Shown piece after piece: positions 2,002-56,925 of a DNA stretch of 64,000 nt. The stretch lies in IMG/VR virus record IMGVR_UViG_3300045976_000088, positions 33,605-97,604 of that record, one strand, 5' to 3'. Each line of letters begins with the position of its first letter. The stretch's first letter is position 1. A program made the translations under genes and the position numbers. Below the pieces are notes generated by a model that did not search any database, had not been told where the DNA came from, and saw only the letters and a list, made by a program, of their open reading frames with translations. This DNA comes from a virus.

Positions 2002-2355
2002 ATGGCTACATGCTGGCAGATCGTCACGAGGGCCCTGCACGAGCTTGGCGGCAGCGCCACGGCCGCGCAGGTGGAGCTGCACATCGGCGGCGCGTTCTAC
2101 GCGGCGCGCGGGCTGGAAAGCGCGGCGAAGCACGGCCTCGTGAAGTGCTCCGGCAAGGGTGCTGCAGTGCCGTGGGTGCTCACGCAAAAGGGCATCGACT
2201 GGAGCGAGGGCCGGCTGACGACGGCAGAGCAGCGCCGCTATCCAGGTCGCGAGAGCCCGCAGTTCATCGGCATGCGCTTCGTTCCGACCTGGCTGTCGGC
2301 GCTGCCGCGCGGGATTCGTATCACCCAACCCGAACCGGAGGCCGCGCCGTGCTGA
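2002..2355 (+). CDS. Hypothetical protein, winged-helix-like
   Basis: ORF beginning exactly at the motif-defined ATG; wHTH-like pattern. Confidence 0.6.
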   Translation: MATCWQIVTRALHELGGSATAAQVELHIGGAFYAARGLESAAKHGLVKCSGKGAAVPWVLTQKGIDWSEGRLTTAEQRRYPGRESPQFIGMRFVPTWLSALPRGIRITQPEPEAAPC

Positions 2356-2449
2356 ACGCCGCTTTCCTCACCTGGTGCGCATGGTGGCACGCCTACACCG
2401 GCAACTTCGAGGCCGCCGCGCGCTGCGTGGCCGCAGCATGGGAGGCGCC

Positions 2450-2794
2450 GTGCGCTCCTGGTTCCGCAACCTGATCCGTTCCTGGGTGGCCGGCCCCGAG
2501 CTGTCGGAGCTCGCACGCTGGCGCATCGCGCACGCCCACGTGCACGGAGGCCTGAGCGAGTTCCCGCAGAGCGCCGCCGCGCTGCAGTTCCTCGACGACC
2601 TGGTGGCCGGCCGCTCGCGCTACGGCGACCTGAACGCGCTGCGCGCCCAGCTGCGCGAGCTGCAGCCGGTGACGCCGATCGCGCCCGCCGGCTACCGGCC
2701 GCCCGAGCCGCCGAGGCGCCGGCGCGAGGACTACCTGGACGGCGACAGCATCCCCTACCAGTACCTCGTCGGAGCGTGCGGCGATGAGCGCTGA
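2450..2794 (+). CDS. Hypothetical protein
   Basis: GGAGG SD before GTG 2450; overlaps the next start. Confidence 0.5.
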   Translation: MRSWFRNLIRSWVAGPELSELARWRIAHAHVHGGLSEFPQSAAALQFLDDLVAGRSRYGDLNALRAQLRELQPVTPIAPAGYRPPEPPRRRREDYLDGDSIPYQYLVGACGDER

Positions 2795-3329
2795 TCGCGA
2801 GGATCTTGAGGCCGAACTGCTAGACGCCTACGAGGCGCCGCCGGACGGCCCGCTGCACCCCGCCACCGTCGCGCACCGCGTGATGCAGCTGGACGAGCAC
2901 AAGCACCTGGTCGAGAACGAGATCCGGTTTCTGTTCCTGCTGCGCTACACGCCCGACAAGCAGGGCGGCCGCGAGGTGATCGGCCGCGTGAGCGAGCCGC
3001 AGGTGCAGGGCCGCATGCGCGAGCTGTTCGAGCACCTGATCGTCAAGGCCTACGGCTTCCTGCCCGACTACATCGTCACGATCAGCGCGGACTTCTGGCG
3101 CGAGGCGACCGACCTGCAGCGCGAGGCGCTGATGCACCACGAGCTTAGCCACGTGCAGCAGGCGCTCGACCGCGATGGCGAGCCGCGTTTCAACACGCAG
3201 ACCGGCGAGCCGATCTATTGCCTGGTGGCGCACGACATCGAGGAGTTCAACAAGACGGTCGAGCGCTACGGACTGTGGAAGGATGACGTGCGGCAGTTCG
3301 CCGAGACCTGCGCGAGGGTCGAGCGGTGA
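2784..3329 (+). CDS. Putative phage metallopeptidase
   Basis: HELSH (HExxH) motif followed by HDIEEF...YGLW. Confidence 0.75.
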   Translation: MSADREDLEAELLDAYEAPPDGPLHPATVAHRVMQLDEHKHLVENEIRFLFLLRYTPDKQGGREVIGRVSEPQVQGRMRELFEHLIVKAYGFLPDYIVTISADFWREATDLQREALMHHELSHVQQALDRDGEPRFNTQTGEPIYCLVAHDIEEFNKTVERYGLWKDDVRQFAETCARVER

Positions 3330-3679
3330 GCACGCAGCCCGGAACCGGCCTGGCCCGCTTCGCCGAGGTGGTGGCGCTGCTGGTGAAGCAGCCTCGCACC
3401 ATCACCGAGCTGTCGGAGGCGATGGGCCAGGACAAGCCGAACGATCAGCCGGCCCGCTACATCAACGCGCTGCGCGCCGAGGGCCTGCTGTACGTGAAGG
3501 AGTGGCGGCAGCAGCTCAATGGTCGCGGCAAGCCGTGGCCCGTCTACGCCTGGCAGCCCAGCGTGCTGGAGCTGCCCGACGCGCCGCGGCCGGAGTGCAC
3601 GCCGCGCCCGCCGAAGGTCGGCAAGCGCGAGCTCGCGCGCCAGCGGCGCGAGGCCGCGTCATGCACGACGCCCGCCTGA
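3326..3679 (+). CDS. Winged-helix DNA-binding protein
   Basis: PRTITELSEAMG...YINALRAEGLLYV; GTGA coupling with the upstream gene. Confidence 0.6.
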   Translation: MSTQPGTGLARFAEVVALLVKQPRTITELSEAMGQDKPNDQPARYINALRAEGLLYVKEWRQQLNGRGKPWPVYAWQPSVLELPDAPRPECTPRPPKVGKRELARQRREAASCTTPA

Positions 3680-7373: not shown

Positions 7374-7810
7374 TGCTCTGCCCCATCTGCGGCCGCCCGA
7401 CGCGCCTGCTGCGCACCGAGCCGCTGGAGGTGGGCGCAGTGCGCCACGTGCGCCTGTGCACGATCCCGACCGCGCTGGCGCACCCTCACGTCGAGTTCGA
7501 GACCGTTGAGGTGCTGGCCGCCACGCTGAGCGGCATGGGCGCGACCGCGTTGGCGCGCGAGCTGCACCGCGCGCGCAAGGGGCTGCGGCGCCGCGTCGAG
7601 ACCGAGACCATCCGGCGAAAGACGCTGAAGCTGCTGGCCGCCGGCAAGCGCACGGCGCACGTGGCGCGCGCGGTCGGCATAACCGAGGCCCGTGTTCGTC
7701 AAATTCGAGCAGAAGCGGCCGCTGTGACGGTATCCTCCGCGCATGGTGAACCCGAACCCCAAAGCGAAACCGGACCTGAAGCACGGCAACAGCCACCCGC
7801 TGCGCGCTGA
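7373..7810 (+). CDS. Zn-ribbon (Ogr/NrdR-like) plus HTH putative transcription regulator
   Basis: MLCPICG...RHVRLC...FETVE N-terminus; C-terminal TAHVARAVGITEARVRQIR HTH; TGATG coupling. Confidence 0.6.
   Translation: MLCPICGRPTRLLRTEPLEVGAVRHVRLCTIPTALAHPHVEFETVEVLAATLSGMGATALARELHRARKGLRRRVETETIRRKTLKLLAAGKRTAHVARAVGITEARVRQIRAEAAAVTVSSAHGEPEPQSETGPEARQQPPAAR
7722..7742 (+). promoter_or_regulatory. TCGTGA-box variant promoter, leaderless type (terS-terL)
   Basis: CTGTGA-cgg-TATCCT-ccgcgc-ATG(7743). Confidence 0.6.
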
Positions 7811-10491: not shown

Positions 10492-10500
10492 CGTGACGAT
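10486..10500 (+). promoter_or_regulatory. TCGTGA-box promoter overlapping the terL stop
   Basis: TCGTGA-cgt-GACGAT. Confidence 0.55.
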
Positions 10501-10982: not shown

Positions 10983-10997
10983 TCGTGAGCGAAGACT
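10983..10997 (+). promoter_or_regulatory. TCGTGA-box promoter, short-leader type
   Basis: TCGTGA-gcg-AAGACT; GGAG SD and ATG 11022 downstream. Confidence 0.65.
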
Positions 10998-11021
10998 GGC
11001 TGCTCTAACCGGAGCAGTACC

Positions 11022-12212
11022 ATGTCCACCTTGCCCGCCCGCCCGCGCGTCGCCGCGCTCGACTACAGCCGCGACCTGTCACCCGCCCGCCAGGCGTTTC
11101 TCTCGCGCTTCCCGTTCGTCGTGCTGAGCTTCCTGCAGGCGCAGCTGAGCGCCGCGGCGCTGCCTGCCACGCTGGCGTTCCTGCAGGCACTGCGCAACGC
11201 CGGCACGCAGGTGGCGCAGTACACGATCCTCAACGAGTTCAAAGACCCGCAGACCACCAGCGACGAGACCTACTCGTGGTGGCAGCAGTTGAACGCCAAC
11301 GCCTGGTGGGCACTGAACGCCGGCGCCAAGGTGCAGTGGACGACCGCATTCGGAAACTTCGAGGCCAACCCGACGCGCGAGACGCAGCCCGACGCGCAGG
11401 GCCGCCATGTGCCGCAGGCGCGCGCCGAATGGGACTGGTCGAACCGCCTGCAGTACCTGGCGCCGCTGGTGGGCTACGTGTTCTGCGACAACACGATGTT
11501 CCAGCCGCGAGTGACCGCCGACTACAACTGCGACGGCACGAGCGAGACGCCGGCCCAGGCCGCGCAGGCATTCCGCACGGGCTACGCCGAGTTCTTCGCG
11601 GCGCTGCAGGCGCGCGGCTTCAAGGTGATGGGCAACAGCGACTGCGACACCTCGGCTGCCGGCGGCTACGGCTGCAGCCTGTCGAAGCCTGAGCTCAAGG
11701 GTGTCGCGCAAGGTGCGTTCCTGGAAGGCGTCGCCGGCAAGAGCTACAGCCTGGAGGGGTTCGCCGGCGTGGCCGCGGTGCTGAAGTACATCCGCAGCGC
11801 GATCAACGCGACGCAGCCAGGCAGCCCGGTGCTGGTGAACGTCTACGCCGACCTGCCGACCAGCGTGCAGCTGGCGCGCTACGGCCTGTGCATCTCGATG
11901 CTGGAGGATGGGCTGTACTGCCTGAACGCGGCCAGCAACCAGGCGCCGCTCTGGCTCGACGAGTACGACCAGCCGATCGGCGATCCAACCGACGGGCCGC
12001 AGAGCGCGCCGACGCTGAGTGGTTGCTTCGTTCGCCGCTACAGCAACGGCATGGTGCTGGTGAACCCGACCAGTGCCGCGATCACGGTCGACCTGACTGG
12101 GCAGGGCCTGCGGCGTTTCTCAGGTTCGCAGGATCCGGTGGTGAACAACGGCCAGGCCGTCAGCCAGGTGACCTTGCAGCCGAAGGACGGCGTGCTGCTG
12201 CTGAAGCTCTAA
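11022..12212 (+). CDS. Putative glycoside hydrolase (GHL15-like TIM barrel)
   Basis: YVFCDN, WLDEYDQPIG and C-terminal VRRYSNGMVLVNPT...VTLQPKDGVLL. Confidence 0.6.
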   Translation: MSTLPARPRVAALDYSRDLSPARQAFLSRFPFVVLSFLQAQLSAAALPATLAFLQALRNAGTQVAQYTILNEFKDPQTTSDETYSWWQQLNANAWWALNAGAKVQWTTAFGNFEANPTRETQPDAQGRHVPQARAEWDWSNRLQYLAPLVGYVFCDNTMFQPRVTADYNCDGTSETPAQAAQAFRTGYAEFFAALQARGFKVMGNSDCDTSAAGGYGCSLSKPELKGVAQGAFLEGVAGKSYSLEGFAGVAAVLKYIRSAINATQPGSPVLVNVYADLPTSVQLARYGLCISMLEDGLYCLNAASNQAPLWLDEYDQPIGDPTDGPQSAPTLSGCFVRRYSNGMVLVNPTSAAITVDLTGQGLRRFSGSQDPVVNNGQAVSQVTLQPKDGVLLLKL

Positions 12213-14914: not shown

Positions 14915-14935
14915 TCGTGACGACACCATGGCGAC
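14915..14935 (+). promoter_or_regulatory. TCGTGA-box promoter, leaderless type (portal)
   Basis: TCGTGA-cga-CACCAT-ggcgac-ATG(14936). Confidence 0.7.
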
Positions 14936-16693
14936 ATGGACAATGCCGCCTCCGTTGCCTTCAATCCAGACGCGCCTGCCGACGAGCGCCGCGACGCCAA
15001 AGCGGAGCTGCAGAAGGCGCATGCCCCAACGTCATCCGACATCGCCAAGAACGTCGGTAACCTGGCGCCCCTGATCGACTTCATCCGGCATCAGGCCGAG
15101 GAACAGGAGTTCCAGAAGTCGCTCACCAAGCAAAACGTGATCCCATTCCCGTCGCTGGCGGTCAAAAACCGCAAGCCCGGCATGCAGTCGGTCACGCTCG
15201 ACGACATGCTGGTGACGGTGCAAGGAGACTGGTACGAGCGCCCTGGCTCGATGCCGTTCGACTCTCTGCGCATGATGGTGCGCGAGACACCGGTGCTTGG
15301 CGCCGTGATCATGCAGCGCATCCGCCAGGTGCAACGCTTCTGCCGTCCGCAGGAGAACGGCAAGGGCTACGGCTTCAAGATCGCGCTGAAGGACAAGACG
15401 GCGCACACCGGCCCCGAGGAGGAGCAGTCCATCGCGCTGCTGCAGGACTTCTTCAGCAACTGCGGCTGGGAGAAGAACCCGCGCGCGCGCCGGCGCCTGA
15501 AGCGCGACGACTTCACGTCGTTCATGGGCAAGCTGGTGCGGGAGTCGCTGACCCTGGACTCGATGCCGATCGAGACGGAGTTCAAGCGCGATCGCAGCCA
15601 GGGCATCGACGGCATGTATGCGGTCGACGGCGCGACGGTGCGGCTGTGCACTGAGCTCGGCTATGAGGGCGACGACGAGATTTACGCCCTGCAGGTGGTG
15701 CAGGGCCAGGTGCGAGCGGTCTACACCTATGACGATCTGATCTACGTCCCACGCAACCCGCTGGCGGACGTGAACGCCGGCGGCTACGGCCTGAGCGAGA
15801 CCGAGTTGCTGGTGCGTACGGTGACGGGCTTCCTGAACGCCTTCACCTACAACACCAAGTTCTTCGACTCGAATCAGATCCCGAAGGGCCTGCTGCACCT
15901 GTCTGGCAACTACGACGACAACGACATCACCGCGTTCAAGCGCTTCTGGAACGCGATGGTCAAGGGCATCAACAATGCCTGGTCGCTGCCGGTGATGGTA
16001 TCGAAGGACCAGGAGTCGAAGGCCACGTTCGAGAACTTCGGTGTCGAGGTCAACGAGATCATGTTCGCGAAGTGGATGGTGTTCCTCGTGAGCATCATCT
16101 GCGCGATCTACGGTATCGCACCCGAGGAGATCAACTTCGAGAGCTTCACGGCCGGCACGAGCTCGCTGAGCGGCGACGACACCGAGGAGAAGCTGGTCTC
16201 GTCGAAGGACAAGGGCCTGCGGCCGCTGTTGAGCTACTTCGAGAACCTGTTCACCGACTACGTGGTCTCGGAGTACGGCGACAAGTACGTGTTCCGCTGG
16301 ACCGGCCTCGACGAGGAGGATCCGAAGTCGGCAGCCGAGCGCCAGAAGCTGTCGATGACGTGGAACGAGATGCGTGCACTCGACGACCTGCCGAAGATCC
16401 CTGGCAAGGTCGGCGACGCGCCGCTCAACCCCGCCCTGCTCGGCGCCTGGCAGCAAGAGAACATGCCGCAGGAGACCGACTTCGGCCAGCCCGGGCAGCA
16501 GCAGCCGCCAGGCGACGACGAGGGTGCGTCAGCCGAGGGCCAGGACTTTGGCAACCCGGGCGACGAGAACGACACCGGCGCCGACTTCGGCCAGGCCGGC
16601 GGCGACGACAGCCAGGGCGGCGGCGACGAGCCTGCCGACAGCGCCACGATGGCGAAGGCCTTCGGCCTGCCGGTGTTCAAAATCGAGCCGTGA
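14936..16693 (+). CDS. Portal protein
   Basis: YAVDGATVR, YVPRNP....GYGLSETE, FFDSNQIPKGLL, ICAIYGIAPEEI and KGLRPLL motifs; acidic tail. Confidence 0.88.
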   Translation: MDNAASVAFNPDAPADERRDAKAELQKAHAPTSSDIAKNVGNLAPLIDFIRHQAEEQEFQKSLTKQNVIPFPSLAVKNRKPGMQSVTLDDMLVTVQGDWYERPGSMPFDSLRMMVRETPVLGAVIMQRIRQVQRFCRPQENGKGYGFKIALKDKTAHTGPEEEQSIALLQDFFSNCGWEKNPRARRRLKRDDFTSFMGKLVRESLTLDSMPIETEFKRDRSQGIDGMYAVDGATVRLCTELGYEGDDEIYALQVVQGQVRAVYTYDDLIYVPRNPLADVNAGGYGLSETELLVRTVTGFLNAFTYNTKFFDSNQIPKGLLHLSGNYDDNDITAFKRFWNAMVKGINNAWSLPVMVSKDQESKATFENFGVEVNEIMFAKWMVFLVSIICAIYGIAPEEINFESFTAGTSSLSGDDTEEKLVSSKDKGLRPLLSYFENLFTDYVVSEYGDKYVFRWTGLDEEDPKSAAERQKLSMTWNEMRALDDLPKIPGKVGDAPLNPALLGAWQQENMPQETDFGQPGQQQPPGDDEGASAEGQDFGNPGDENDTGADFGQAGGDDSQGGGDEPADSATMAKAFGLPVFKIEP

Positions 16694-19475: not shown

Positions 19476-19490
19476 TCGTGACGCTACTCT
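19476..19490 (+). promoter_or_regulatory. TCGTGA-box promoter, short-leader type
   Basis: TCGTGA-cgc-TACTCT; GGAG SD and ATG 19516 downstream. Confidence 0.7.
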
Positions 19491-19515
19491 GTGCGTCTCA
19501 ACCCTTGGAGATCCC

Positions 19516-19752
19516 ATGTCCATCACCTCCGTTGTCGACGCCATCAAGGCAAAGGCCGAAGCCGATCTGTCCGTGTTCAAGGCCGAGCTCGTCGGCTTCG
19601 AGCACCACGTCGAATCGATCTTCAGCCTGGGCGTGAAGTACGCCGCCGAACACCTCGGCTTCAGCGCCGCCGAAGCGCAGGCCCAGCCCGAGCAGACCGC
19701 CGCCGCGCCGCAGGCCACCGAAGGCGCCGCCACCGAAGCCTCGGCGAGCTGA
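19516..19752 (+). CDS. Ala-rich hypothetical protein
   Basis: SD plus ATG; typical codon bias. Confidence 0.65.
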   Translation: MSITSVVDAIKAKAEADLSVFKAELVGFEHHVESIFSLGVKYAAEHLGFSAAEAQAQPEQTAAAPQATEGAATEASAS

Positions 19753-20613: not shown

Positions 20614-20634
20614 TCGTGATGCCCCAATCGGGGC
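20614..20634 (+). promoter_or_regulatory. TCGTGA-box promoter, leaderless type
   Basis: TCGTGA-tgc-CCCAAT-cggggc-ATG(20635); lacks the -11 A. Confidence 0.6.
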
Positions 20635-21330
20635 ATGGAACTCCTCAAGCACTTCGACCGCAACACCGCGGGCCGCGACCTGATCGTCGGCGACGTCCAT
20701 GGTTGCTTCACCAAGCTGCAGGCCGCGCTCGACGCGCTGAAATTCGACCCCGCGCGCGATCGCCTGTTCTCCGTCGGTGACCTGGTGGACCGCGGCCAGG
20801 AATCCGACGACGCCACCGAGTGGCTGGCGAAGCCATGGTTCCACGCGGTGCGCGGCAATCACGAGCAGATGGCGATCGACTTCGCGGCCGGCTTCGGCGA
20901 CCCGCGCCTCTACATGATGAACGGCGGCGCCTGGTTCATCGGCCACCCGAAGTCGCACCAGCAGTGGATGGCCGACCAGTTCGCCGCGCTGCCGATCGCG
21001 ATCGAGGTCGAAACCGAGCACGGCCTGGTCGGCATCGTGCACGCCGAGTGCCCGACGATCCGCTGGCAAGACCTGCGCGATGCGCTGACGGGCCCGGCAT
21101 CCGACGGCTTCCAGCAGCTGTGCATGTGGTCGCGCGACCGTATCACGGGCGAGCTCGTCGATCACACCGAGGGCGTCAGCGCGGTGATCGTCGGCCACAC
21201 GCCGGTAGAGCGCTGGATCACGCTGGGGAACACGATCTACATCGACAGCGGCGCGTGGCTGCCTCCGCACCGCGGGGATCGTCCGTTCACCATCCTCGAC
21301 GCCGCCACGCTGCGCCCTGCGCAGTCGTGA
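20635..21330 (+). CDS. Ser/Thr protein phosphatase (lambda NinI/PphA-like metallophosphoesterase)
   Basis: GDVHG, GDLVDRG, RGNHE, GHTP and IDSG motifs. Confidence 0.92.
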   Translation: MELLKHFDRNTAGRDLIVGDVHGCFTKLQAALDALKFDPARDRLFSVGDLVDRGQESDDATEWLAKPWFHAVRGNHEQMAIDFAAGFGDPRLYMMNGGAWFIGHPKSHQQWMADQFAALPIAIEVETEHGLVGIVHAECPTIRWQDLRDALTGPASDGFQQLCMWSRDRITGELVDHTEGVSAVIVGHTPVERWITLGNTIYIDSGAWLPPHRGDRPFTILDAATLRPAQS

Positions 21331-21518: not shown

Positions 21519-21540
21519 TCGTGACTGCATTCTTGCGGGC
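21519..21540 (+). promoter_or_regulatory. TCGTGA-box promoter, (near-)leaderless type
   Basis: TCGTGA-ctg-CATTCT-tgcgggc-ATG(21541). Confidence 0.65.
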
Positions 21541-22692
21541 ATGTCCTTGTTCGTCGACCTGATCGAGCTCAGCGAGCCGCGCACCAACGCGGCGCTGGAG
21601 TTCATGTGCAAGGCGTCGCACGACGATGACGACGCGGTGTGGCTGCCGATGGATTCCCCGTTCATCCGGCGCCTCGTCGAGCTGTTCACCCAGCGCGGCC
21701 TGATGCGCCTCGATGCGTTCCGCGTCGACCTGCAGGCCTGGGCCGAAGGTCAGCGCCACCGCGAGCACCCCGAGCGGCCCGCGCGCCCCGATGGCGCCAT
21801 GGAGCGCTGGACGTCGGCCGAACTCGCGCTGGTGAAGCTGTACCTGGAGGCCGTGCCGCCGGCGCAGTACACGCTCGACGACTGGATGATGCTCACCGAG
21901 TACCTGTTCCAGCGCTACCTGCCGGCCGACGACATGCGCACCGAGGCCGAATGGTTAGCCACCAAGGCGACGCTGATGGGTCGCGTGCAGGCCAACATGG
22001 AGAAGATCGGCACGCGCCAGGCCGACGCGGTGATCGCCGCGCTGCCAGCCACCGTGCACGCGGCCGAAACCGCCTTCGACCTGACGCCGCGGCAGCGCGC
22101 TACGCTCGACTTCGCGCGCGTGCGCGCCGCTGAGAACGTGCGCGCGCTGACCGAGGACGTGCGCCACAAGATGCGCACGCTGATCGCGCAGCACGCCGAG
22201 CGACAGATGCTCAAGGTGCCTGGCACGCCGGGCACCGCGCTGCAGACCGAGCTCGTCGATGCGTTCGCCGCGCTCAACCGCGACTGGCGCCGCGTCGCGG
22301 TGACGGAGGCGGCCGAGGCCTCGAACCAGGGCTTCATCGGCACGCTCAAGCCTGGAGCGCGCGTCAAGCGCGTCGAGCAGTACAAGGGCGTGTGCGCGTG
22401 GTGCGCAAAGATCAACGGCCGCATCCTGGAGGTCGTCGACCCGTCGGCGCCGGACAAGGACGGCGAGACCCAGGTATGGGTCGGCAAGACGAACATCGGC
22501 CGCTCCGCGGCGCCGCGCAAGCGCGTTGGCGACCTGCTGGTCGAGCGCGAGCCGCACGAGCGCTACTGGATAGCCGCCGGCACGCAGCACCCTCACTGCC
22601 GCGGGCGATGGATCCCCGTGGCCGATGCCCAGCCGGGGGACGATCCGGCGTTCGCGGAGTGGCTGAGCCAGCTCCTGGAGAAGAAACCTTGA
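21541..22692 (+). CDS. MuF/SPP1-gp7-like minor head protein
   Basis: RRVAVTE...CAWCAKING...HPHCRGRW motifs; start reassigned to ATG 21541. Confidence 0.75.
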
Positions 22693-31071: not shown

Positions 31072-31174
31072 AATCTCCCCACGGCCAGCGCTTCCGCTGC
31101 GTCGTCGATCCTGACCCGGACCAGAAGGCGGGCAATCCCCGGGCAAAGGTTCACCACCCGCAATCGAGCGCACA

Positions 31175-31203
31175 GGGGCCGCCTTCGGGCGGCTCCGTTC
31201 TTT
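31175..31203 (+). terminator. Rho-independent terminator
   Basis: GGGGCCGCC-TTCG-GGCGGCTCC followed by a T-rich tail. Confidence 0.7.
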
Positions 31204-31208
31204 CCGGG

Positions 31209-31229
31209 TCGTGAGGCGATCATGCTGGC
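31209..31229 (+). promoter_or_regulatory. TCGTGA-box promoter, leaderless type
   Basis: TCGTGA-ggc-GATCAT-gctggc-ATG(31230). Confidence 0.7.
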
Positions 31230-34200
31230 ATGAAGCCGGTTCTCCTCCTGAAATCGAAGATCCCCGAGGGGGCCCGCTGGATCACGGTGCACCCCAACGG
31301 CCCCGGCACCGAGGGCCAGCCGGTGCTGATCCAGCCGAACCCTGACGGCACCGCGCACGTGATCGGCGGCGCCGGTGGCAAGCTCAACTACCTGAAGCTC
31401 CGCGGCGTTCGCAAGGAAAGCGAGTACAAGCGCGAGGCCGAGGAGCGCAAGAAGGCAAGGACCGAGGCGGCGAAGGAGCAGCGCCAACGGGACAAAGAGG
31501 CCGGCATCCTGGAGTCGAAGAACAAGGCCCGGGAGAACCTGCGCCTGCAACAGCGCCAGCACGAGCGCGAGTTCGTCGAGACGGTGGGCCGCGCGCTCGG
31601 CTGGGATCCGAAGGAGATGCAGTTCCCGGAGGAGGACTACGCGCACCTGTCGGATGCCGCGCAGGCCAAGCTGCGGCAGAAGTTTCACCGGCAGCTGATG
31701 CAGCGAGCCAACGAGGCCATTGAGCTGCAGCGCCAGCGTCTGGTGACCGACAGCGCGGCGCGCATGCAGGCTGGCATCGGCGAGGTGCCGCTGACCGCGC
31801 GCGACGACTCCACCCTGTCGGTGCAGGATCTTGCGCCCATCCAGGAGAACCCCGGCGGCTTGGGTTTCGCGCAGGACTTCAAGAAGCGCGCGGAGGCGGC
31901 AGGCGCCGGCGAGGAGGAGATCAAGGCCGAGGCCGACAAGCTGAAGCAGGCTAAGCAGCAGCAGCTGAGCGAGGGTCAGCGCCGTGCGGCGGTCGATCGT
32001 GGCGAGACGGCGAAGCTGGTCAAGCAGGAGCTGCAGGGCATCCGCGAGCCGGCGGCGCCGAAGGCTACCGCCGACCTGGCCGACGCCAAGCGGGCCGTCG
32101 AGCTCATGAAGGCGCGCAAGAAGCTGCAGCAAATCCAGCAGAAGGCGCGCGCGGCCGCCGCCGAGATCGACAAGTCGGCCACCGAACCGAAGGCCTACGT
32201 GCTGCAGTACGAGGCCGAGCCGGACGAAAAGCTCGACGCGAAGATCGCCGAGGAGGTCAACAACGACCTGCGCACAGTGCAGACCCTGGCGTTCCTGTCG
32301 GAGGTTCAGCGCTTGGCCGGCGGCGACCCCACCGAGACCCTTGGCAAACACATTGGCATCGGCGCCTACAACTCGGTCAACTCGCTGGCGCTGGCCGTCG
32401 GCGGCGATGCGCTGGTCGACCGGTCGGTGGTCGACGTGCTGGGCATCGCCGGCGCCGCGCAGGTGCTCGCGCGCCGCATCCACGGCGACCTGCCGGACCA
32501 GGTGGAGCGCATCACCGAGGGGGTTCAGGATTTCCACCTGCACCACTACATGGACACCAGCACCGAAGCGCTTGCGCAGGCGCAGGAGCTGATGGACGCG
32601 GCGAAGGAAATCGAGCTGGGCGAGGCCGCCAATGGGGCCGACCTGCAGGTGGCGCAGGAGCTCAATTCGCGCCGGCGCCGCGCCATCGGCGACGCGCAGA
32701 AGATCCTCGGCCAGGCACTTGGCGAGATGGAGGCAAACGCCGCGCTGGTGGTTGCGCTGAAGCAGGGCCGTAAAGACTCTTTCCAGGTCAGCCTCGGCAA
32801 GGCCAGCCCGGAGGCTGCGATCACGCAGGCGCGCGCGATCGGCCTGCAGCGCGGCGACTACACCATCGAGCACGTCGCCGGCGACACGTTCCTGACCGTC
32901 AACGGCGCCGGCCTCGACCGCCTGGCGAAGCCCGTCAACCGCGCAGACCTGGAGCAGGTGCAGCGTAACCTGGCAATCATCCGCGGCGACCACGACGAGG
33001 AGGATTGGCTGCCGGAAGGCGTCGCGCGGCGACCTGACCTGGTGATGGACGTCAAGCCCGGCGTCGCGCCGCGGCTCGCGCAGCCGTTCGCGCCAAGCGG
33101 CGACCTGGAGCAGTCCCTGCGCGACTACATCGGCGGCCGCGCAGCCGACGGCGATGCGCCAGGCGACATCGTGGCCGACATCCAGTCGGCCGACTTCTTC
33201 CAGCGCGTGGGATTCGATCGCGCCGAGGCCTACCGCCAGGCGCTCGATGCCGTGGCGCCGCTCAAGGACGCCGACGGCAACCAGCAGCGCGCCGAGGCAC
33301 TGGCCGAGCACTTCGACCGGTTGGCCGACGATTTCGTGCAGCGCCATCACGGTGGCGAGCGCTCGACGCTGAACAAGCAGGCCTTCGACGTCGACGACAA
33401 GGCCACCGACGCGCTGCACCGCGCCCTGGCCGAGCACCCTGAGGGCGTGGCAGCCTACAAGCAGATCGGCGAGCTCACACACCAGGACCAGCGCGCGCTG
33501 CGCGAGTTCTTCCACGCGAACATCGCCAAGGAATCGCCCGAAGCAACCGCGCTGCGCCGCGATCTGGAGCAACACCAGGCCAACGAGCCGGAGCGCGAGA
33601 CCACGGATATGTTCGGCGAGACCGTGCCGAATCCCGAGCACGGCGAGTGGCGCGCGCGCCACGACGAGCTGTCGACCAAGGTCAACGCTTCGTCGCTGAA
33701 CTGGGCGAAGTACGCGGAAGCCATGGGCGGCCACGAGCGCGCCTACGAGGTGGTGCAGGACTTGATCAAGTCGCGCGTTGGCCGCGCGTTCGCCGACCAC
33801 TACAACCGGCTGAACCCCGGCAAGCCGCTGAAGGTCGGCAAGTCCGTCATCCGCAACAACCTGCACCACCTCGACGCCACCGACCCCGAGGCGCGCGAGC
33901 GGCGCGAGCAGCAGCACCGCGCGCTGGTCGACAGCCTGCGCGAGCGGTCGCAGGGCCGCTACGCCGCCGGCAGCGTCAGCGAGAAGCTGGATGCGGCGCG
34001 CGAGCAGCGCGAGGCCTTCGAGCAAGCGCAGATGGGGTTCTTCTCGGCCGAGGAGGCGCCGCAGGCTGCGGCCGCCGACAAGCCAATCGAGCTATCCGGC
34101 GATGAGCGGCACACCATCGGCCACGTGGCCGAGCGCCAAATCGCCGGCATGATGGGCAAGGTGGGCGCCAACTTCAAACCCGGCAAGCCGCTGCGCCTGT

Positions 34201-35771: not shown

Positions 35772-35783
35772 GACACTGCGCCC

Positions 35784-36044: not shown

Positions 36045-36066
36045 CCACGCTACCGGTGGACCCGTT

Positions 36067-36090
36067 GGCCGCTTTCGAGCGGCCTTTTTT
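36067..36090 (+). terminator. Rho-independent terminator
   Basis: GGCCGCT-TTCG-AGCGGCC followed by T6. Confidence 0.88.
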
Positions 36091-36116
36091 GTTCGTGCGC
36101 ACACACGTCTAAAGAG

Positions 36117-36137
36117 TCGTGACGCCAGACTCGGCTC
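36117..36137 (+). promoter_or_regulatory. TCGTGA-box promoter, leaderless type (head operon)
   Basis: TCGTGA-cgc-CAGACT-cggctc-ATG(36138). Confidence 0.72.
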
Positions 36138-37019
36138 ATGCGTAATGACGCCGAACTGCTTGCAGCCGTACCCGATTTCATCTCGGTAGGCGGCCTGCTC
36201 AAAGCAACCCCGTCCGAGGACGGGGGGCGGCGCATTCTCTACTTCGAGGCCAGCAACGAGGACCGCGACATCCAGAACGAGGTGGTGCTGCAGAAGGCAC
36301 TCGAAGCCTCGTCGGACTACTACCTGCGCCACGGCAACCTCGATCTGGAGCACTTCACCGTCATCGGTGCCAAGGTCGGCATTCCGAACTACCACGAGTA
36401 CGAGATCGGCAAGCCCTGCGAGGTGCAGGTCAACGGCAAGAAGACGTTCGTCAAGGCCGAGCTCTACCGCGGCGACAGCGCGATGGCGCGCAACGCCGAT
36501 ATGGTGTGGGACAGCATCACCAAGCAGGATCCGCCGGCGCGCTGGTACCCAAGCGTCGGCGGATCGGTGCTCGACAAGAGCGTGAAACTGGACCCGAAGA
36601 CGGGTGAAAAGATCGCTGTCGTCGAGCGCGTGCGCTGGAACAACACCGCGCTTTCGCGCACACCTGTGAACAAGTCCGTCGGAACGGTCAGCACCGCACC
36701 GGTCGGCATCTTCGCGAAGTCGCTCGGCGGCTTCGTGATCAAGGCACTCGAAGCGAGCTACGCAACCGACGCGGCCGGCAAGACCGGCGGCGCGGCGCTC
36801 GGCATGCAATCACTCGATCGCGGCGTCGCCAGCTACTGGGACTTCCGCGAGCGCCTGGCCGGCGACATGCGGTCGGGCGCGATCCAGAACCCGCGAGCGC
36901 GCGATCTCGTCGCGCACGCTGTGGAGCGGTTCGGTCTGTCTCACGACGAGGCTGCCGAGTACGTGGAGCGCTTTCTGCGCGATTTGAAAAACGGTCTCAA
37001 CAAACGGAGCAATCCATGA
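36138..37019 (+). CDS. Prohead protease
   Basis: ASNEDRDIQNEVV, LDLEH, SVGG and ALSRTPVN (HK97/herpes-fold protease pattern); located before the capsid gene. Confidence 0.8.
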   Translation: MRNDAELLAAVPDFISVGGLLKATPSEDGGRRILYFEASNEDRDIQNEVVLQKALEASSDYYLRHGNLDLEHFTVIGAKVGIPNYHEYEIGKPCEVQVNGKKTFVKAELYRGDSAMARNADMVWDSITKQDPPARWYPSVGGSVLDKSVKLDPKTGEKIAVVERVRWNNTALSRTPVNKSVGTVSTAPVGIFAKSLGGFVIKALEASYATDAAGKTGGAALGMQSLDRGVASYWDFRERLAGDMRSGAIQNPRARDLVAHAVERFGLSHDEAAEYVERFLRDLKNGLNKRSNP

Positions 37020-37690: not shown

Positions 37691-37727
37691 CGATCGAACC
37701 AACCGGCAACACCTCACAGAGGAAAAC

Positions 37728-39233: not shown

Positions 39234-39307
39234 CGCAGACGGGCCGCAAGGCCCATTGATCAGGCCCGGCTCCCTCGTGGGGCCGGGCTTACCACCAGGA
39301 GATTCAC

Positions 39308-39673: not shown

Positions 39674-39702
39674 TCTACTCTCGCACCTGAAAGGCCAACG
39701 CC

Positions 39703-39933
39703 ATGTCCGCACCGATTCGCCAGAAGCAGCTGAACAAGCTCAACCCCGCCGCCGCCCATGCCAAGCTGGGCGATGTGCTCAACGACCTGATCGTGCAGGT
39801 GAACGCGCTGTGGGTCGCTGTCAACGCCATCTGCGTGAAGCTCGACGCTGACGCCGGCGTGACCGACACGAACTACACCTCGACGATCGCGCCGAGCGCG
39901 GTGACCGTGAAGGATCTGGAGAGCCGCGGCTGA
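39703..39933 (+). CDS. Hypothetical virion protein
   Basis: 76-aa ORF in the head operon. Confidence 0.6.
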   Translation: MSAPIRQKQLNKLNPAAAHAKLGDVLNDLIVQVNALWVAVNAICVKLDADAGVTDTNYTSTIAPSAVTVKDLESRG

Positions 39934-39956
39934 CGCCAGTCAATCCACCGAACTGA

Positions 39957-39993
39957 AAGCGCCGCCAGGGGTACCTGCGCGGCGCTTTTTCTT
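39957..39993 (+). terminator. Rho-independent terminator
   Basis: AAGCGCCGC...GCGGCGCTT followed by a T tail. Confidence 0.75.
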
Positions 39994-39994
39994 G

Positions 39995-40009
39995 TCGTGA
40001 CTTCATAGT
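39995..40009 (+). promoter_or_regulatory. TCGTGA-box promoter, leadered type
   Basis: TCGTGA-ctt-CATAGT directly after the terminator; AAGGA SD and ATG 40072. Confidence 0.68.
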
Positions 40010-40071
40010 TCACGCGCGGGCTGACAGGCCCCGGAACCACCAATTCGCAGGCCTCTGCAAAGGACATTTCC

Positions 40072-40491
40072 ATGTCGGCTTACAACAAGTTCAACGTCTT
40101 CGCGACGGACCTCACCAACGGGAAGCACAACTTCTCGTCGGACAGCATCAAGGTGATGCTCACCAACACCGCACCGGTCGCGACCAATGCGGTCAAGGCC
40201 GACATCACCGAAATCGCTGCAGGCAACGGCTACACCGCTGGCGGCAGCGCGACGACGATCACGAAGTCGAACAGCTCTGGCACCGAAAAGATCGTCGGCT
40301 CCAACGTGGTGTTCACCGCGACCGGCGCTGTCGGCCCGTTCCGCTACGCGGTGCTCTACAACGACACGCAGGCCAGCCCCGCCAAGCCGCTGATCGGCTG
40401 GTGGGACTATGGTTCGAGCATCAGCCTGGCGAACGGCGAGACGTTCACTGTCTCCTTCGACGCGACGAACGGCATCTTCCAGGTCGGTTGA
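40072..40491 (+). CDS. Virion structural protein
   Basis: IKVMLTN...EIAAGNGYTAGG...FRYAVLYN...LIGWWDYG, a common phage fibre/decoration family pattern. Confidence 0.7.
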   Translation: MSAYNKFNVFATDLTNGKHNFSSDSIKVMLTNTAPVATNAVKADITEIAAGNGYTAGGSATTITKSNSSGTEKIVGSNVVFTATGAVGPFRYAVLYNDTQASPAKPLIGWWDYGSSISLANGETFTVSFDATNGIFQVG

Positions 40492-45448: not shown

Positions 45449-46099
45449 ATGCAACTGAACCCGAACGCCTTCAACGCGCATCTCGCCAACATCGGCCAGC
45501 AGGTTTCTTGGCGGCAGAGCCACAACTGCCCCTGCATCAACCCGCACAGCGGTGCCGCCAAGCCGGGCTGCCCGGTGTGCGGCGGCCGCGGCCGGTTTTG
45601 GGATCCGTCCGTGGCTGGCGTGATCGGCATTGCGAACCAGCAGGTGCAAAAGCGCTGGGCGCAGATGGGTCGCTACGAGGCCGGCGATGCCGTGGTGACG
45701 GTGCCGGAGAACTCCGCGGTCTATGACGCCGGCCAGTTCGACCGCGTACTGATGCTCAACAGCACCGACCGCTTTTCGGTGTCTCTGATGCACGGCGCCT
45801 CGAACGAACGCCTGTACTACTCACTGCAGAGCGTCGATCGCGTGTTCTGGCTCACCAATGGCGGCCTGCCGCTGGTGGAGGGTGGCATCCCCACCGTTGC
45901 GGACAACGGCGTGCTCACGTGGAGCTCCGGCGAGCCGCCGGCTGGCATGACGTACACGATCGAAGGCTCGAAGTTCAGCGAGTATTTCGTCTTCGACTCG
46001 ATGCCGAGCGATCGCAACGAGCACAGCGGCGCGAGGCTGCCGCGCAAGATCGTGCTGCGTAACTTCGACCTGTATGGTCGAGCCGGCGACAACTCCTAG
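45449..46099 (+). CDS. Neck/head-closure protein
   Basis: CPC...CPVCGGRG motif; position. Confidence 0.6.
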   Translation: MQLNPNAFNAHLANIGQQVSWRQSHNCPCINPHSGAAKPGCPVCGGRGRFWDPSVAGVIGIANQQVQKRWAQMGRYEAGDAVVTVPENSAVYDAGQFDRVLMLNSTDRFSVSLMHGASNERLYYSLQSVDRVFWLTNGGLPLVEGGIPTVADNGVLTWSSGEPPAGMTYTIEGSKFSEYFVFDSMPSDRNEHSGARLPRKIVLRNFDLYGRAGDNS

Positions 46100-46956
46100 C
46101 CGCCGCGCTTGATCGCTTCGGTGAAGGCCTGCTCGGCGAGCGGCCGCATCTCGTTGGAGATGTTCTCGGCGATGTGTAGGCCGGGCTGCGCAGGAACGAT
46201 CCAGCCCGAAGATCCTTCCATCATCGTGCGGAAGGTCATGTAGGTCGAATATCGCTTGCCGCCAGGCGTGCGGCTGTCGAAGCGCACCATGCCGGCGTAG
46301 CGATCGGTCTTGCCATGCGGGTTGGGTCCGAGCATGGCAGCCGGCAGCCGGCCGCCCCACTGGTACTGCTGCCGCGGCACCATGTAGTGCTGCCGCGTGT
46401 GGATGCTCGACGCGAACGGCCGCTGCTGCGCGGCCGCGCGCATGCCGAACTTGGGGCTGAGCTCGGTCACCTCGCCGCTCGGCCGGAAGCTGCCCGCTGG
46501 CGTCGTCACCTTGCTGGCAGAGAGCTGTGAAGCGGCGTCGTAAATCTGCTGCGGCATCGCCGGACCGAGCGCATCGTTGCCTGGGGTGTTGTGGCGAAAC
46601 GGGATCACCAGGAACCGGCGCCCGTCCTTGGTGGTGCGCACCTTCAGCGAGGTGTCGAGCATCTTCTTCAGGTCGCGCGCCGGGCGGCCGCTCTCGATCT
46701 CGCTGGCGTACTTGTAGTCGCTGAAGACGAGCCAGGCGAACGGCCCCGTCTGCTGCAGCTGAATCGATTCCATGTAGGCGGTCTTCTCGCCGCTCCAGAG
46801 CTTGGCCCGGTAGACGGCCTCCATCCAACGGACCTGTGTTTGCTGCGCGACGGCGCGCACCGCCTGCGCCAGCCTGGGCAGCACTTGCTCGTTGACTGCC
46901 GACGTGGCGCTATCCAGCACCACGTTCAGGTCGATTGAGATCCGAAACTCAGCCAT
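46096..46956 (-). CDS. Probable neck/tail-completion protein, inverted relative to neighbours
   Basis: YASEIESG..DLKKML...FLVIPFRH; has its own leaderless promoter. Confidence 0.6.
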   Translation of the reverse strand: MAEFRISIDLNVVLDSATSAVNEQVLPRLAQAVRAVAQQTQVRWMEAVYRAKLWSGEKTAYMESIQLQQTGPFAWLVFSDYKYASEIESGRPARDLKKMLDTSLKVRTTKDGRRFLVIPFRHNTPGNDALGPAMPQQIYDAASQLSASKVTTPAGSFRPSGEVTELSPKFGMRAAAQQRPFASSIHTRQHYMVPRQQYQWGGRLPAAMLGPNPHGKTDRYAGMVRFDSRTPGGKRYSTYMTFRTMMEGSSGWIVPAQPGLHIAENISNEMRPLAEQAFTEAIKRGG

Positions 46957-47005
46957 GCCAGCAGGTTAGCGTCACGCGCCGGTGTCGTGACGCAACACTC
47001 GGAGC
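46957..47005. promoter_or_regulatory. Back-to-back divergent TCGTGA-box promoters, both leaderless
   Basis: Minus strand: GCGTGA-cgc-TAACCT-gctggc-ATG(46956). Plus strand: TCGTGA-cgc-AACACT-cggagc-ATG(47006). Confidence 0.75.
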
Positions 47006-47866
47006 ATGACGATTACCGCCCTTCGCCCGCTTGCTGCCGGGAACGCGCTGCGCGTTTTCCTGCAGCCGCCCGCTGGCGCGCTGGCTTGGCGGATCGTTCG
47101 GAAGGCCACCAACGACATCAGCGGCTTGAACGATCCGGGCGCTGCGCTGGTGTATGACGGCGACGACATCGCGCCGCTCGACTATTCGGTGCCGACGAAC
47201 GGCGTCACGTTCTACTACCAGGCCTTCTACTGGGATGGCGCCACCTGGACGCCCAGCAACGCGCTCAGCGGTCAGGCGGCGGCCACCTACTCCGACGGCA
47301 CCATCGACGTGCTGGAGCTCGTGCGCGAGCGCTTGGACTTCGGCATGCAGGCCGAGATCGCGGCGCAGCGCCTGGTGCCGCAGTCCGGGATCATCGAGGT
47401 GCTGACGGCGCCCCCGGTGTGGGAGAACACGAAGTGGCCCGTCGTCACGGTCCACATGCAGTCCGATTCGTCGCAGGGTCGCGCTCTCGGCGAGGTGATC
47501 GAGCCGGACGAGCAGGTCGACGGCGGTACCGGCTGGGATGAGATCGAGGGCTGGCTTTCCAGGGTGCAGCTGGCGATCGTCGGCTGGAGCCAGAACCCGG
47601 ACGAGCGCATCGAACTACGCAAGGCGGTGCGCCGCATCGTCGTGGCAAACCTCGCTGTCTTCGACGCGGCTGGCATGGTGCAGATCGACACCACGCAGCA
47701 GGACATTGACATGGTGAACGGGGAGTACCCGGCGCCTGTCTATCAGACCCTGTGCACCCTCACTTGCCAGGCCACGGTGCGCGTTGTCACCGGCCACGAC
47801 GATCCGGTCACCGACGTCACCGTCACCGCAACCGCAACCAACCTTTCACCAGGGGAATCCCCATGA
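47006..47866 (+). CDS. Probable tail terminator/completion protein
   Basis: Position before the sheath gene; WPVVTV and NPDERIELR motifs. Confidence 0.55.
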   Translation: MTITALRPLAAGNALRVFLQPPAGALAWRIVRKATNDISGLNDPGAALVYDGDDIAPLDYSVPTNGVTFYYQAFYWDGATWTPSNALSGQAAATYSDGTIDVLELVRERLDFGMQAEIAAQRLVPQSGIIEVLTAPPVWENTKWPVVTVHMQSDSSQGRALGEVIEPDEQVDGGTGWDEIEGWLSRVQLAIVGWSQNPDERIELRKAVRRIVVANLAVFDAAGMVQIDTTQQDIDMVNGEYPAPVYQTLCTLTCQATVRVVTGHDDPVTDVTVTATATNLSPGESP

Positions 47867-54811: not shown

Positions 54812-55725
54812 TGTTCTCGATTGGCACTGTCGTCGCCTCCTACCCCGAGGGAAACTCGGTGGATGTGCTGCTCGACAACGGCGACCGCCTGTCGAATGTG
54901 CAGGTGATGGTGCCTACGGGCAGCAACGTGTCGGGCGTGATCGACCTTCCTGACGTTGGCGGCCCGTCGTCGAGCGACGAGGCGCGCTGGGATCCGACGT
55001 CGCAGCGCGACCGCTACGTCAAGGCCGTGGTCGGCTTCTGCCACAGCGTGCCGGTCGTGTTCGGTTTCCTGCTGCCCCAGGTCAACGAGATCACGTTCCA
55101 GGAGAAGAATCGGCGCATCGTGCGGCATGCCAGCGACGTCTACTCCAGCGTCGACGACAGCGGCAACGTCGAGGTCTACCACCCGAGCGGCACCTACATG
55201 CGCATCGGCACGTCGCCGGCGCACGAAGACTTGACAGCGAAGGACTACGACAAGAAGTGGGCGATCGCACGCAACACCGACAAGCAGGTGCACGTGCAGC
55301 TGACGGTGATGAACGGCGGCGCGCAGAAAGCCTCGCTTAACATCGACCCGAGCGGCAACATCACGCTCACGCATGTCGGCAACCTGGTGACGCACACCCA
55401 AGGCACCGCGAGCGTGACGGTCGACGGCAACACCACGGTGCACGTGGGTGGCAATGCCAGTGTCAACGTCAGCGGCACCACCGACGTGACGTCGGGCGGC
55501 AATGCCTCGCTGACGGCGCCCCAGGTGACGATTGATTCCGCGCAGACCACGTGCACCGGCCACGTGACGATCGAGGGGGGGCTCAATGTGTCGGGCGGCA
55601 GTGGGGCGGCCGTGGCTGGCAATGTGACGGTCACCGGAGGTGACGTTACCGCCGACGGTCACACGCTGAAGAACCACACCCACCCCGACCCGCAAGGCGG
55701 CAACACAGGCCTGCCGACTGGCTGA
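54811..55725 (+). CDS. Baseplate central spike (gpV/gp45-like)
   Basis: OB-like N-terminus, V-x-G beta repeats and a C-terminal HTH metal-tip motif (LKNHTH). Confidence 0.8.
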   Translation: MFSIGTVVASYPEGNSVDVLLDNGDRLSNVQVMVPTGSNVSGVIDLPDVGGPSSSDEARWDPTSQRDRYVKAVVGFCHSVPVVFGFLLPQVNEITFQEKNRRIVRHASDVYSSVDDSGNVEVYHPSGTYMRIGTSPAHEDLTAKDYDKKWAIARNTDKQVHVQLTVMNGGAQKASLNIDPSGNITLTHVGNLVTHTQGTASVTVDGNTTVHVGGNASVNVSGTTDVTSGGNASLTAPQVTIDSAQTTCTGHVTIEGGLNVSGGSGAAVAGNVTVTGGDVTADGHTLKNHTHPDPQGGNTGLPTG

Positions 55726-55728
55726 CCG

Positions 55729-55749
55729 TCGTGACGGCACCATGCCGTC
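55729..55749 (+). promoter_or_regulatory. TCGTGA-box promoter, leaderless type
   Basis: TCGTGA-cgg-CACCAT-gccgtc-ATG(55750). Confidence 0.7.
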
Positions 55750-56925
55750 ATGTACGGTCGGTCCCCGAGCTCACAGAAGGCCGACGCCCGCCCGATTTCC
55801 TTCGTGCTCGACGATCAATCGAGCGCTGGTGCGTCGCCCGTCAGCGTCAACCTGGCAATCCGCCCGGAAGACCTGTCGCGCACCGACACTTCGCGCATCT
55901 CGGTGCAGCAGACCCTTGGTGGCGCCTGGGCCGACAACTTCGGCGCCGGCATCCCGACGATCAGCATCAGCGGTCACACAGGCTGGAAGCCGGCCGCCAC
56001 GGGGAACGACACCAAGGATGGCGCAGAGCGTTTCCAGTGGCTGTTCGAGAACGTGTTCGAGAAGTGGCACTCGCTGCGCGGCGATGCGGTGAAGGCGGGC
56101 AAGAACCCGGACCTGGTGAAGCTGGTCTATGCGGATTCGCTCGACAGCATCGTCTCGGTGGTCGCGCCGATGAGTTTCGCGCTGCGCCGCTCGAAGTCGC
56201 GTCCGCTGCTGTTCCAGTTCCAGATCGCTCTGACCGTCCTGTCCGATGACATCGACGCGCTCGACTACCTGACCTTCAACAGCCCCGACCCCACCTCAGA
56301 CAAGCAGGCGCTGCAGTCGGCCGGCCTCGACAGCATGGTGGCCTCGATCAGCCAGCTGACGTCTTACCAGCAGGACATCCAGAACTACATCGCCAGCACG
56401 CTGGTGGCGCCGGCGCGCTACTACCTGCAGCAGTCGGTGGCGCTCTACAACGCGGTGAACACCGCGGTGGAGAACAACGACCAGATCGCGAGCCAGCTGA
56501 TCGCTGCTGCGCGCATGACGGCACAGGCTGGCCTGAACGTGTTCCGCACGCTGGCGGCTGCTGAGAGCGCGAGCAGTCAGGTCAAGGCGCGCCTGATGGA
56601 GGTGGCTGGAGCCTTCAGCAACATCTTCTGCGTGCTCGGGAACGCCCTGCTGCAGCAGCAGTATTACCCCGACTACGATCCGCTGTTCGGCTCCTCGAAT
56701 TGCTCCAGCACCAGCGGCGGCCGCCCGCTCAGTCCGCTGTCGGGCGTGAACCCGTTCTACCTCTACTCGCCGACCAGCCAGGCGCTGCCGGTGACGCTTT
56801 CCGACAGCGCGCGCAACACCATGCAGACGCTAGCGTCGAATGACGTGGTGCAGGCTCCCCTGTCGCAATCGTCGATCCAGGCTTCGCTCTCGGTCATTCA
56901 ATCCGGCTTCACGGTGAGCGCATGA
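55750..56925 (+). CDS. Baseplate/tube-initiator-like protein
   Basis: IRPEDLS...QTLGGAWADNFG...ISISGHTG; position. Confidence 0.55.
   Translation: MYGRSPSSQKADARPISFVLDDQSSAGASPVSVNLAIRPEDLSRTDTSRISVQQTLGGAWADNFGAGIPTISISGHTGWKPAATGNDTKDGAERFQWLFENVFEKWHSLRGDAVKAGKNPDLVKLVYADSLDSIVSVVAPMSFALRRSKSRPLLFQFQIALTVLSDDIDALDYLTFNSPDPTSDKQALQSAGLDSMVASISQLTSYQQDIQNYIASTLVAPARYYLQQSVALYNAVNTAVENNDQIASQLIAAARMTAQAGLNVFRTLAAAESASSQVKARLMEVAGAFSNIFCVLGNALLQQQYYPDYDPLFGSSNCSSTSGGRPLSPLSGVNPFYLYSPTSQALPVTLSDSARNTMQTLASNDVVQAPLSQSSIQASLSVIQSGFTVSA

Follow-up and report, generated by a model that had tools for sequence, protein, structure and literature searches.

Ten operon-first genes in a 64,000-nucleotide stretch of phage DNA (the window; bases 33605-97604 of the complete 97,604-bp record IMGVR_UViG_3300045976_000088, 66% GC) open at an ATG that stands at a near-constant distance downstream of the hexanucleotide TCGTGA, referred to here as the box. 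The best explanation, to which we give a probability of roughly 0.7 from sequence comparisons, is that the box belongs to a phage-specific late promoter and that the first cistrons behind it are translated from leaderless messenger RNAs. The promoter would comprise GTCGTGAC at -22 to -15 (the A of the ATG being +1) and a minimal -10 element, nAnnnT, at -12 to -7, with no -35 element. It would probably be read by the RNA polymerase of the host carrying a sigma70-family factor, with a phage protein that recognizes the box assisting or redirecting it. With only 6 nt (once 7 nt) between the hexamer and the ATG, the transcripts of the ten genes would begin on the A, in a C(-1)/A(+1) context, and the resulting mRNA, with AUG at its 5' end and neither leader nor Shine-Dalgarno (SD) sequence, would enter the leaderless route of translation. 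Downstream cistrons, and genes set farther from box promoters, would use ordinary SD sites.

The box, the hexamer and the start codon

The original prediction placed the ten ATGs 15 nt (once 16 nt) after TCGTGA or a one-base variant of it, and all ten coordinates were borne out. TCGTGA followed by 15 nt and ATG is found at seven starts (2002, 14936, 20635, 31230, 36138, 47006 and 55750), and 21541 is the sole one of the ten with 16 nt. The one-base variants, both with 15 nt, are CTGTGA at 7743 and GCGTGA at 46956 (minus strand). As had also been claimed, C precedes the ATG at all ten. In nine cases this ATG is the first possible start codon of its open reading frame (ORF); the exception is 21541, where the ORF opens earlier, at GTG 21403. 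The 15 nt resolve into three variable bases, the hexamer nAnnnT at -12 to -7 and a further six bases, with T-7 in ten of the ten and A-11 in nine. In the whole 97.6-kb genome TCGTGA-N15-ATG occurs seven times, every time at a gene start, against 0-4 occurrences for each other spacing from 0 to 40. Because N15 is the only spacing enriched genome-wide, chance is excluded. A relaxed scan of the genome revealed no additional sites of the box-N15-ATG kind.

None of the ten starts has a usable SD sequence, again as predicted. The calculated duplex with the anti-SD ranges from +0.6 to -3.1 kcal/mol at nine of them, compared with -5.8 to -11 kcal/mol at ordinary SD-led genes of the same genome. At 31230 the value is -5.7 kcal/mol, and derives from a GAGG made up by the box and the next two bases, ca. 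13 nt upstream. The GGAG at 47006 cannot act as an SD because it is only 1 nt from the ATG.

The nearest cultured relative of this virus is Bordetella phage vB_BbrM_PHB04 (genus Phabquatrovirus), with 68% identity between the portal proteins. Other relatives are Pseudomonas phages Dolphis, Jeremy and Touem01, Aeromonas phage ST4, Yersinia phage fHe-Yen8-01, Enterobacter phage phiT5282EW, Escherichia coli phage ECML-606-1 and Morganella phage Mecenats66; more distant portal homologs are carried by Thermus phages. The family consists of temperate myoviruses of ~90-98 kb with P1-like DarB and Ulx genes. The published papers that we found naming PHB04, Dolphis, Mecenats66 or Touem01 contain no promoter analysis, and in the Mecenats66 paper the words "promoter" and "leaderless" are both absent.

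For family-wide comparisons we used 42 IMG/VR loci around portal homologs together with the complete genomes of PHB04, Dolphis and ECML-606-1 and that of the phage itself. TCGTGA-N15-ATG is present in 73 distinct contexts in this set, N16 in 21, N14 in 11 and most other spacings in 2-11. When the N15 sites were examined without imposing a hexamer beforehand, 68 of the 73 had both A-11 and T-7, while the remaining hexamer positions vary. A fixed A-11 and T-7 among otherwise free positions is what characterizes -10 elements recognized by region 2 of sigma70-family factors. Among 149 distinct box+hexamer sites an ATG follows the hexamer after 6 nt in 65, after 7 nt in 12 and after 5 nt in 5, every other spacing accounting for 0-7; boxes lacking A-11/T-7 have no N6 peak (2-3 at spacings 5-7). 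About half of the box+hexamer sites have an SD-led start 15-60 nt away. A logo of the 68 sites adds G-22 (84%), C-15 (76%) and G-14 (62%) to TCGTGA, the usual form being GTCGTGAC. It reveals no conservation from -41 to -23 that would suggest a -35 element, nor an extended -10 TG at -15/-14, the conserved TG being located at -18/-17.

In promoters of the sigma70 family, transcription begins ~7 bp after the hexamer, and a purine with a pyrimidine before it is the preferred start. Because the hexamer ends 6 nt before the ATG, the predicted start site is the A of this codon. C occupies -1 at 63 of 88 sites (72%) compared with 50 of 136 (37%) SD-led ATGs (p = 3.5e-7), and this C(-1)/A(+1) enrichment fits a pyrimidine(-1)/purine(+1) start site.

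The box genes with longer spacing singled out in the prediction do carry SD sequences. They have a box, gcg, AAGACT and a leader of ~18 nt with GGAG before ATG 11022 (10983..11024, plus strand), a box, cgc, TACTCT and a ~19-nt leader with GGAG before ATG 19516 (19476..19518, plus), and a box, ctt, CATAGT and a ~56-nt leader with AAGGA before ATG 40072 (39995..40074, plus). Several of the leaderless-type sites would be isolated from upstream transcription. A terminator-like hairpin with a T-rich tail (31175..31206, plus) stands just before the box at 31209, and a terminator hairpin with T6 (36067..36094, plus) lies upstream of the box at 36117; the hairpins end 13 nt and 33 nt, respectively, before these boxes. 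A consensus scan found no sigma70 consensus promoter in the 9.4-kb region around the two. The 49-bp intergenic spacer between 46956 (minus) and 47006 (plus) is taken up by two promoter cores, placed back to back with 7 bp between them. Since terminators or this divergent spacer adjoin the boxes, there is no room for another promoter.

Conservation among orthologs

The box-to-ATG geometry, whose conservation in homologous phages had been named as a check, proved to be kept while the bases between vary. The portal gene, gene 21541, the helicase and protease genes, the 46956/47006 pair and gene 55750 preserve the order box, hexamer, N5-7, ATG at amino acid identities of 42-81%. The arrangement is retained by the portal gene in 27 of 34 distinct relatives, by the helicase gene (31230) in six of six orthologs and by 47006 in five of five, the E. 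coli phage lineage included. Of the 23 orthologs of gene 21541, 16 are of the leaderless type; two loci of the family set (designated L with a number), L031 and L033, have SD leaders instead. Upstream of the protease gene an ATG stands 6-7 nt after the hexamer in 11/11 orthologs; in L033 and L038/ECML this box-linked ATG opens just a relic mini-ORF. Orthologs of 46956 are leaderless in type in PHB04, Dolphis and L013; in L031/ECML and L033 the same promoter precedes an SD-led start; 55750 is of the leaderless type in PHB04 and Dolphis and SD-led in ECML. N-terminal alignments begin at residues 1-3, from which it follows that the box-linked ATGs are real starts.

In L031, L033 and ECML-606-1, where the spacing has been lost, an SD-bearing leader stands between the same promoter and the gene. 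In ECML-606-1 the gap is 29 nt with AAGG at the portal gene, and 17 nt containing GGAGG at the ortholog of 46956. The promoter of its protease gene (L046, upstream of 34447, minus strand) is followed by a relic, ATG-TTT-TGA, at the predicted +1, and then by an SD and the real start. These exceptions indicate that the box acts at variable distance from the gene, as a promoter does, and that the SD is dispensable only at N6/7. Upstream of 7513 (minus strand) in ECML-606-1 another box+hexamer is directly followed by a hairpin and T-run and then by an ATG. The leaderless share is 2/9 in ECML-606-1 versus 10/17 in PHB04, a difference that is suggestive at most. Its dependence on base composition is not significant (36% at <57% GC versus 56% at ≥62% GC; Fisher p = 0.25); the lower-GC group, with the smaller share, includes ECML-606-1.

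The deposited starts of Dolphis gp15 and gp25 and of PHB04 gp014 lie 162, 60 and 9 nt, respectively, downstream of the box-linked ATG, and those of gp25 and gp014 are in frame with it. The corresponding box-linked sites are at 14299-14322 and 23667-23690 in Dolphis (L047) and at 13998-13974 (minus strand) in PHB04. Gene callers that expect a ribosome-binding site (RBS) probably misplace leaderless starts, and annotations of box-linked genes would be affected in consequence.

Probable leaderless translation, its precedents and its alternatives

Leaderless translation is determined by zero leader length, an ATG start and weak 5' structure (Bharmal et al. 2021, PMC8459731). In the family, start codons at hexamer +5 to +7 that open an ORF rich in G+C at third codon positions comprise 56 ATG, no GTG and no TTG, compared with ~40% GTG or TTG among strictly defined SD-led starts. 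The minimum free energy of the first 35 nt is -3.45 kcal/mol, versus -6.09 kcal/mol at SD-led starts (p = 1.5e-6). The position of the hexamer, the conserved spacing, the replacement by SD sequences where it is lost, the exclusive use of ATG, the weak 5' structure, C(-1)/A(+1) and the genomic context agree with one another, and on this comparative and compositional evidence leaderless mRNAs at these starts are probable.

The late promoters of phage P1 (LPmat, LPpro, LPlyz, LPdar, LPs and LPsit), compared here from the annotation and sequence of the P1 record, are activated by Lpa with host SspA. Like those of the present phage they lack a -35 element, have a conserved box shortly before a -10 of the TAnnnT type, are present in many copies, and precede virion, lysis and Dar-type genes of a temperate myovirus, in this case of ~94 kb. 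A GTGAC box core is common to both. The P1 form, however, is AAGTGACTT-N4-TAnnnT, in which GTGAC is 6 nt from the hexamer as opposed to 2 nt here. The 9-bp "-22 box" of P1, AAGTGACTT situated 4 bp upstream of the -10, was not encountered in our sites, only its GTGAC core being shared. Each of the six P1 promoters that were compared has a leader, the distance from hexamer to gene start being 19 to 42 nt. This phage thus resembles P1 in the architecture of its late promoters but is not a member of the P1 system.

The nearest precedent for leaderless late transcripts is provided by Thermus phages phiYS40 and Lalka27a. In Lalka27a, where start sites have been mapped, transcription begins 6 bp after the -10 element, and leaderless transcripts predominate (preprint 10.64898/2026.04.20.719267, which cites Sevostyanova 2007, PMC1885378); phiYS40 likewise has middle and late promoters that give rise to leaderless transcripts. 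Leaderless mRNAs are routine in the phylum of the Thermus hosts (PMC12340547). Phage-specific late promoters with a -10 and no -35 element are a further common feature, and the portal proteins are 37-39% identical to those of Thermus phages (Lalka27a, 37%). The Thermus phage late motif is different, being TAGGGT plus a C at -25. Moreover, the hosts are Proteobacteria in our case, the start sites are predicted, and about half of the family's promoters are of the leaderless type compared with most transcripts in the Thermus phages.

The classic leaderless mRNA of E. coli is that of phage lambda cI transcribed from PRM. It begins at the AUG (Shean and Gottesman 1992, as cited in PMC12340547). Lambda too is a temperate phage of Proteobacteria, but the case concerns one lysogeny gene behind a standard activator-dependent sigma70 promoter and not a dispersed late regulon. 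Late promoters of phage T4 possess a -10-type element only, with no -35, and are served by the host core polymerase with phage specificity factors (gp55/gp33). Unlike those of the present phage, they have the motif TATAAATA with no upstream box, and their transcripts are leadered. No gp55-like protein turned up in the genome, in which no search aimed at gp55 was made.

If box and hexamer form a promoter, transcription might still begin a few bases off the A, or at multiple positions, resulting in leaders of 1-5 nt. We consider this unlikely. Although the spacing is not absolutely fixed (N5/N6/N7 = 5/65/12), and sigma70 starts are generally known to range from ~6 to 10 bp downstream of the -10, the sharp peak at N6, the enrichment of C at -1 before A at +1 and the absence of start codons other than ATG are what would be expected from selection for a 5'-terminal AUG; a short leader lacking an SD would in any case need the same unusual initiation. 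It is far less credible that the motif acts in RNA, within longer, polycistronic transcripts, as a site bound by a translational activator or repressor at a set distance from the AUG. The spacing to the start codon is indeed fixed, and some boxes follow genes on the same strand, so that read-through RNA would contain them. Yet a variable hexamer with A-11/T-7 is the signature of a DNA -10 element, and P1 late promoters share a similar DNA architecture. Those sites, about half, that lie 15-60 nt from an SD-led start require no fixed distance, and several others are situated after terminators or in the 49-bp divergent spacer, where no upstream RNA of the same strand is expected.

The box also contains a TGA that is in frame with an ATG at N15, which raises the thought that it ends an upstream ORF and that ribosomes restart 15 nt further on without an SD; at 10486-10491 the box TGA really is the stop codon of terL. 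We reject this explanation as having next to no probability: the box does not coincide with the end of an upstream gene at any of the ten sites, where the preceding genes terminate 38 to >400 nt earlier, are divergent or are set off by a terminator, and frame-breaking variants (N14 and N16) are in use as well.

A number of points weigh against a late promoter with leaderless first cistrons. The hexamer of 20635 has C at -11, and the SD-led control sets are heuristically called gene starts. Runs recorded as RNA, compared with positions 30800-40700 of the window, gave no match to the phage, the only matches being to soil and rhizosphere metagenome DNA. In the genome no Sigma70_r2 domain was detected and Sigma70_r4_2 gave only a chance-level match of 10.5 bits, in searches that would miss divergent sigma-like proteins such as T4 gp55. 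Neither PF25716 nor phrog_1704, which represent P1 Lpa, had a six-frame match in the genome at E≤10. A non-sigma enzyme reading the box might put the distance rule in doubt. Lastly, leaderless mRNAs represent 55 of 2,187 start sites (2.5%) in Pseudomonas aeruginosa PAO1, and there are none in phage phiKZ (PMC8244752); because they are rare in PAO1, the one proteobacterial host checked, the efficiency of their translation in the host is uncertain.

The proposed reader of the box and the genes it serves

A tblastn search with P1 Lpa gave no match in the phage's own genome, and only a chance-level one (E 9.5) in PHB04. Nothing usable was found with the T7-type RNA polymerase domain (PF00940), which matched 0/14 control genomes of bacteria and archaea, none of them expected to carry one, so that this control does not validate the search. 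A comparison of four complete genomes (the phage itself, PHB04, Dolphis and ECML-606-1) left only a small number of core genes that belong to neither the virion nor the replication module. Among those few are the two that open the rightward operon leading into the first box. The first (305..820, plus strand) encodes a Cys-rich protein of 171 amino acids with eight invariant Cys and two invariant His residues, and has 131 homologs, all unnamed. Its AlphaFold2 model is a confident one, with a pLDDT of 90.6. No match was found in Pfam, PHROG or the PDB sequences, a protein atlas gave just unnamed clusters, and no fold in the PDB matched the model (Foldseek best E 0.59; VIA-align best Z 2.6). The protein may represent a new metal-binding fold. 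Its position and phyletic pattern make it a candidate, albeit a doubtful one, for the late activator that would recognize the box. The neighboring gene (825-1163), encoding 112 amino acids, has just five homologs and belongs to no family.

Between 33400 and 33800 of the genome (approximately positions 1-200 of the window and the 200 nt before it) there are at least ten GGTTACC/GGTAACC heptamers in both orientations, flanking a ~70-nt alternating purine-pyrimidine TG/CG tract that lies immediately before the Cys-rich gene. The arrangement may mark an origin, a pac site or a regulatory region.

As to purpose, the leaderless genes are first cistrons with mostly low-copy products (portal, protease, putative terS and cargo enzymes); SD sequences precede the genes for the major capsid, sheath and tube proteins. 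This split fits the suggestion, made in the original prediction, that leaderless expression might set low-copy stoichiometry, but it follows equally from operon order. We rank more highly the idea of a gate, in which an AUG lacking an SD would be silent on read-through RNA. Evidence for occlusion of the RBS in read-through RNA at leadered boxes was weak, the accessibility of the SD in this genome being lower only at 11022 and 24458.

A joint reading, which we put forward tentatively as possible and not as likely, would be the following. A clade of ~90-98-kb temperate myoviruses, comprising Phabquatrovirus and relatives on Bordetella, Pseudomonas, Aeromonas, Yersinia, E. coli and soil Burkholderiales, would possess an undescribed -35-less late promoter, a new phage factor, which may be the 171-amino acid protein, and a leaderless gate. 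The first cistron of a late operon would be translated only from RNA that starts at the box promoter; read-through and prophage transcripts, in which the AUG is internal and has no SD, would be silent, so that transcription would be linked to translation of the virion and packaging genes. Should 5'-end mapping confirm the late promoter with leaderless first cistrons, the system would be the first dispersed late regulon of leaderless genes to be described in phages of Proteobacteria, and, with the same genes leaderless or SD-led depending on the relative, a natural replicated data set on leaderless translation in Gram-negative bacteria. It would also point to a specificity factor that replaces -35 recognition, and the compact 16-bp late promoter could serve as a phage-inducible part.

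The genes with leaderless-type starts are the following, all on the plus strand unless indicated. The first (site 1981..2004; TCGTGA, cgc, CACGAT, 6 nt, ATG) is an ORF of 117 amino acids (2002-2355) to which no function is assigned; it has a weak PHROG match to a transcriptional regulator (E 8e-4). The ORF of 224 amino acids directly upstream of terL (7722..7745; CTGTGA, cgg, TATCCT, 6 nt, ATG) had been named terS; the geometry of its start at 7743 held, and the name derives solely from its position upstream of terL, Pfam and PHROG searches with this ORF having been without match. Its ortholog in L017 has a canonical TCGTGA, with ATG at +6. The portal gene (14936-16693) follows a box, cga, CACCAT, 6 nt and ATG at 14915..14938, and a gene for a NinI-like Ser/Thr phosphatase (20635-21330) a box, tgc, CCCAAT, 6 nt and ATG at 20614..20637; the CCCAAT hexamer recurs in L017. 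The conserved gene 21541-22692 (383 amino acids) has a box, ctg, CATTCT, 7 nt and ATG at 21519..21543, and is preceded by two tandem box+hexamer sites, at 21325 and 21519, 194 nt apart. A 1513-amino acid SNF2-type helicase (31230-35771) is encoded behind a box, ggc, GATCAT, 6 nt and ATG (31209..31232), and the head maturation protease (36138-37019) behind a box, cgc, CAGACT, 6 nt and ATG (36117..36140). The divergent pair consists of two genes for 286 amino acids each, 46096-46956 (46954..46977, minus strand; GCGTGA, cgc, TAACCT, 6 nt, ATG) and 47006-47866 (46985..47008; box, cgc, AACACT, 6 nt, ATG). The last is a virion structural protein gene (55750-56925), with a box, cgg, CACCAT, 6 nt and ATG at 55729..55752.

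Two further observations concern the surroundings of the boxes. A TCGTGA, cgt, GACGAT is present at 10486-10500, and terL (8419-10491) stops at the TGA of this box, so that the end of the terminase gene and a late-type promoter overlap. A methyltransferase-type protein of 2096 amino acids (24458-30748) matches a PHB04 gene annotated as a DNA methyltransferase, which adjoins a Ulx-like gene in an arrangement that recalls the DarB/Ulx anti-restriction cargo genes of P1. Both giant genes, 24458-30748 and 31230-35771, have box promoters.

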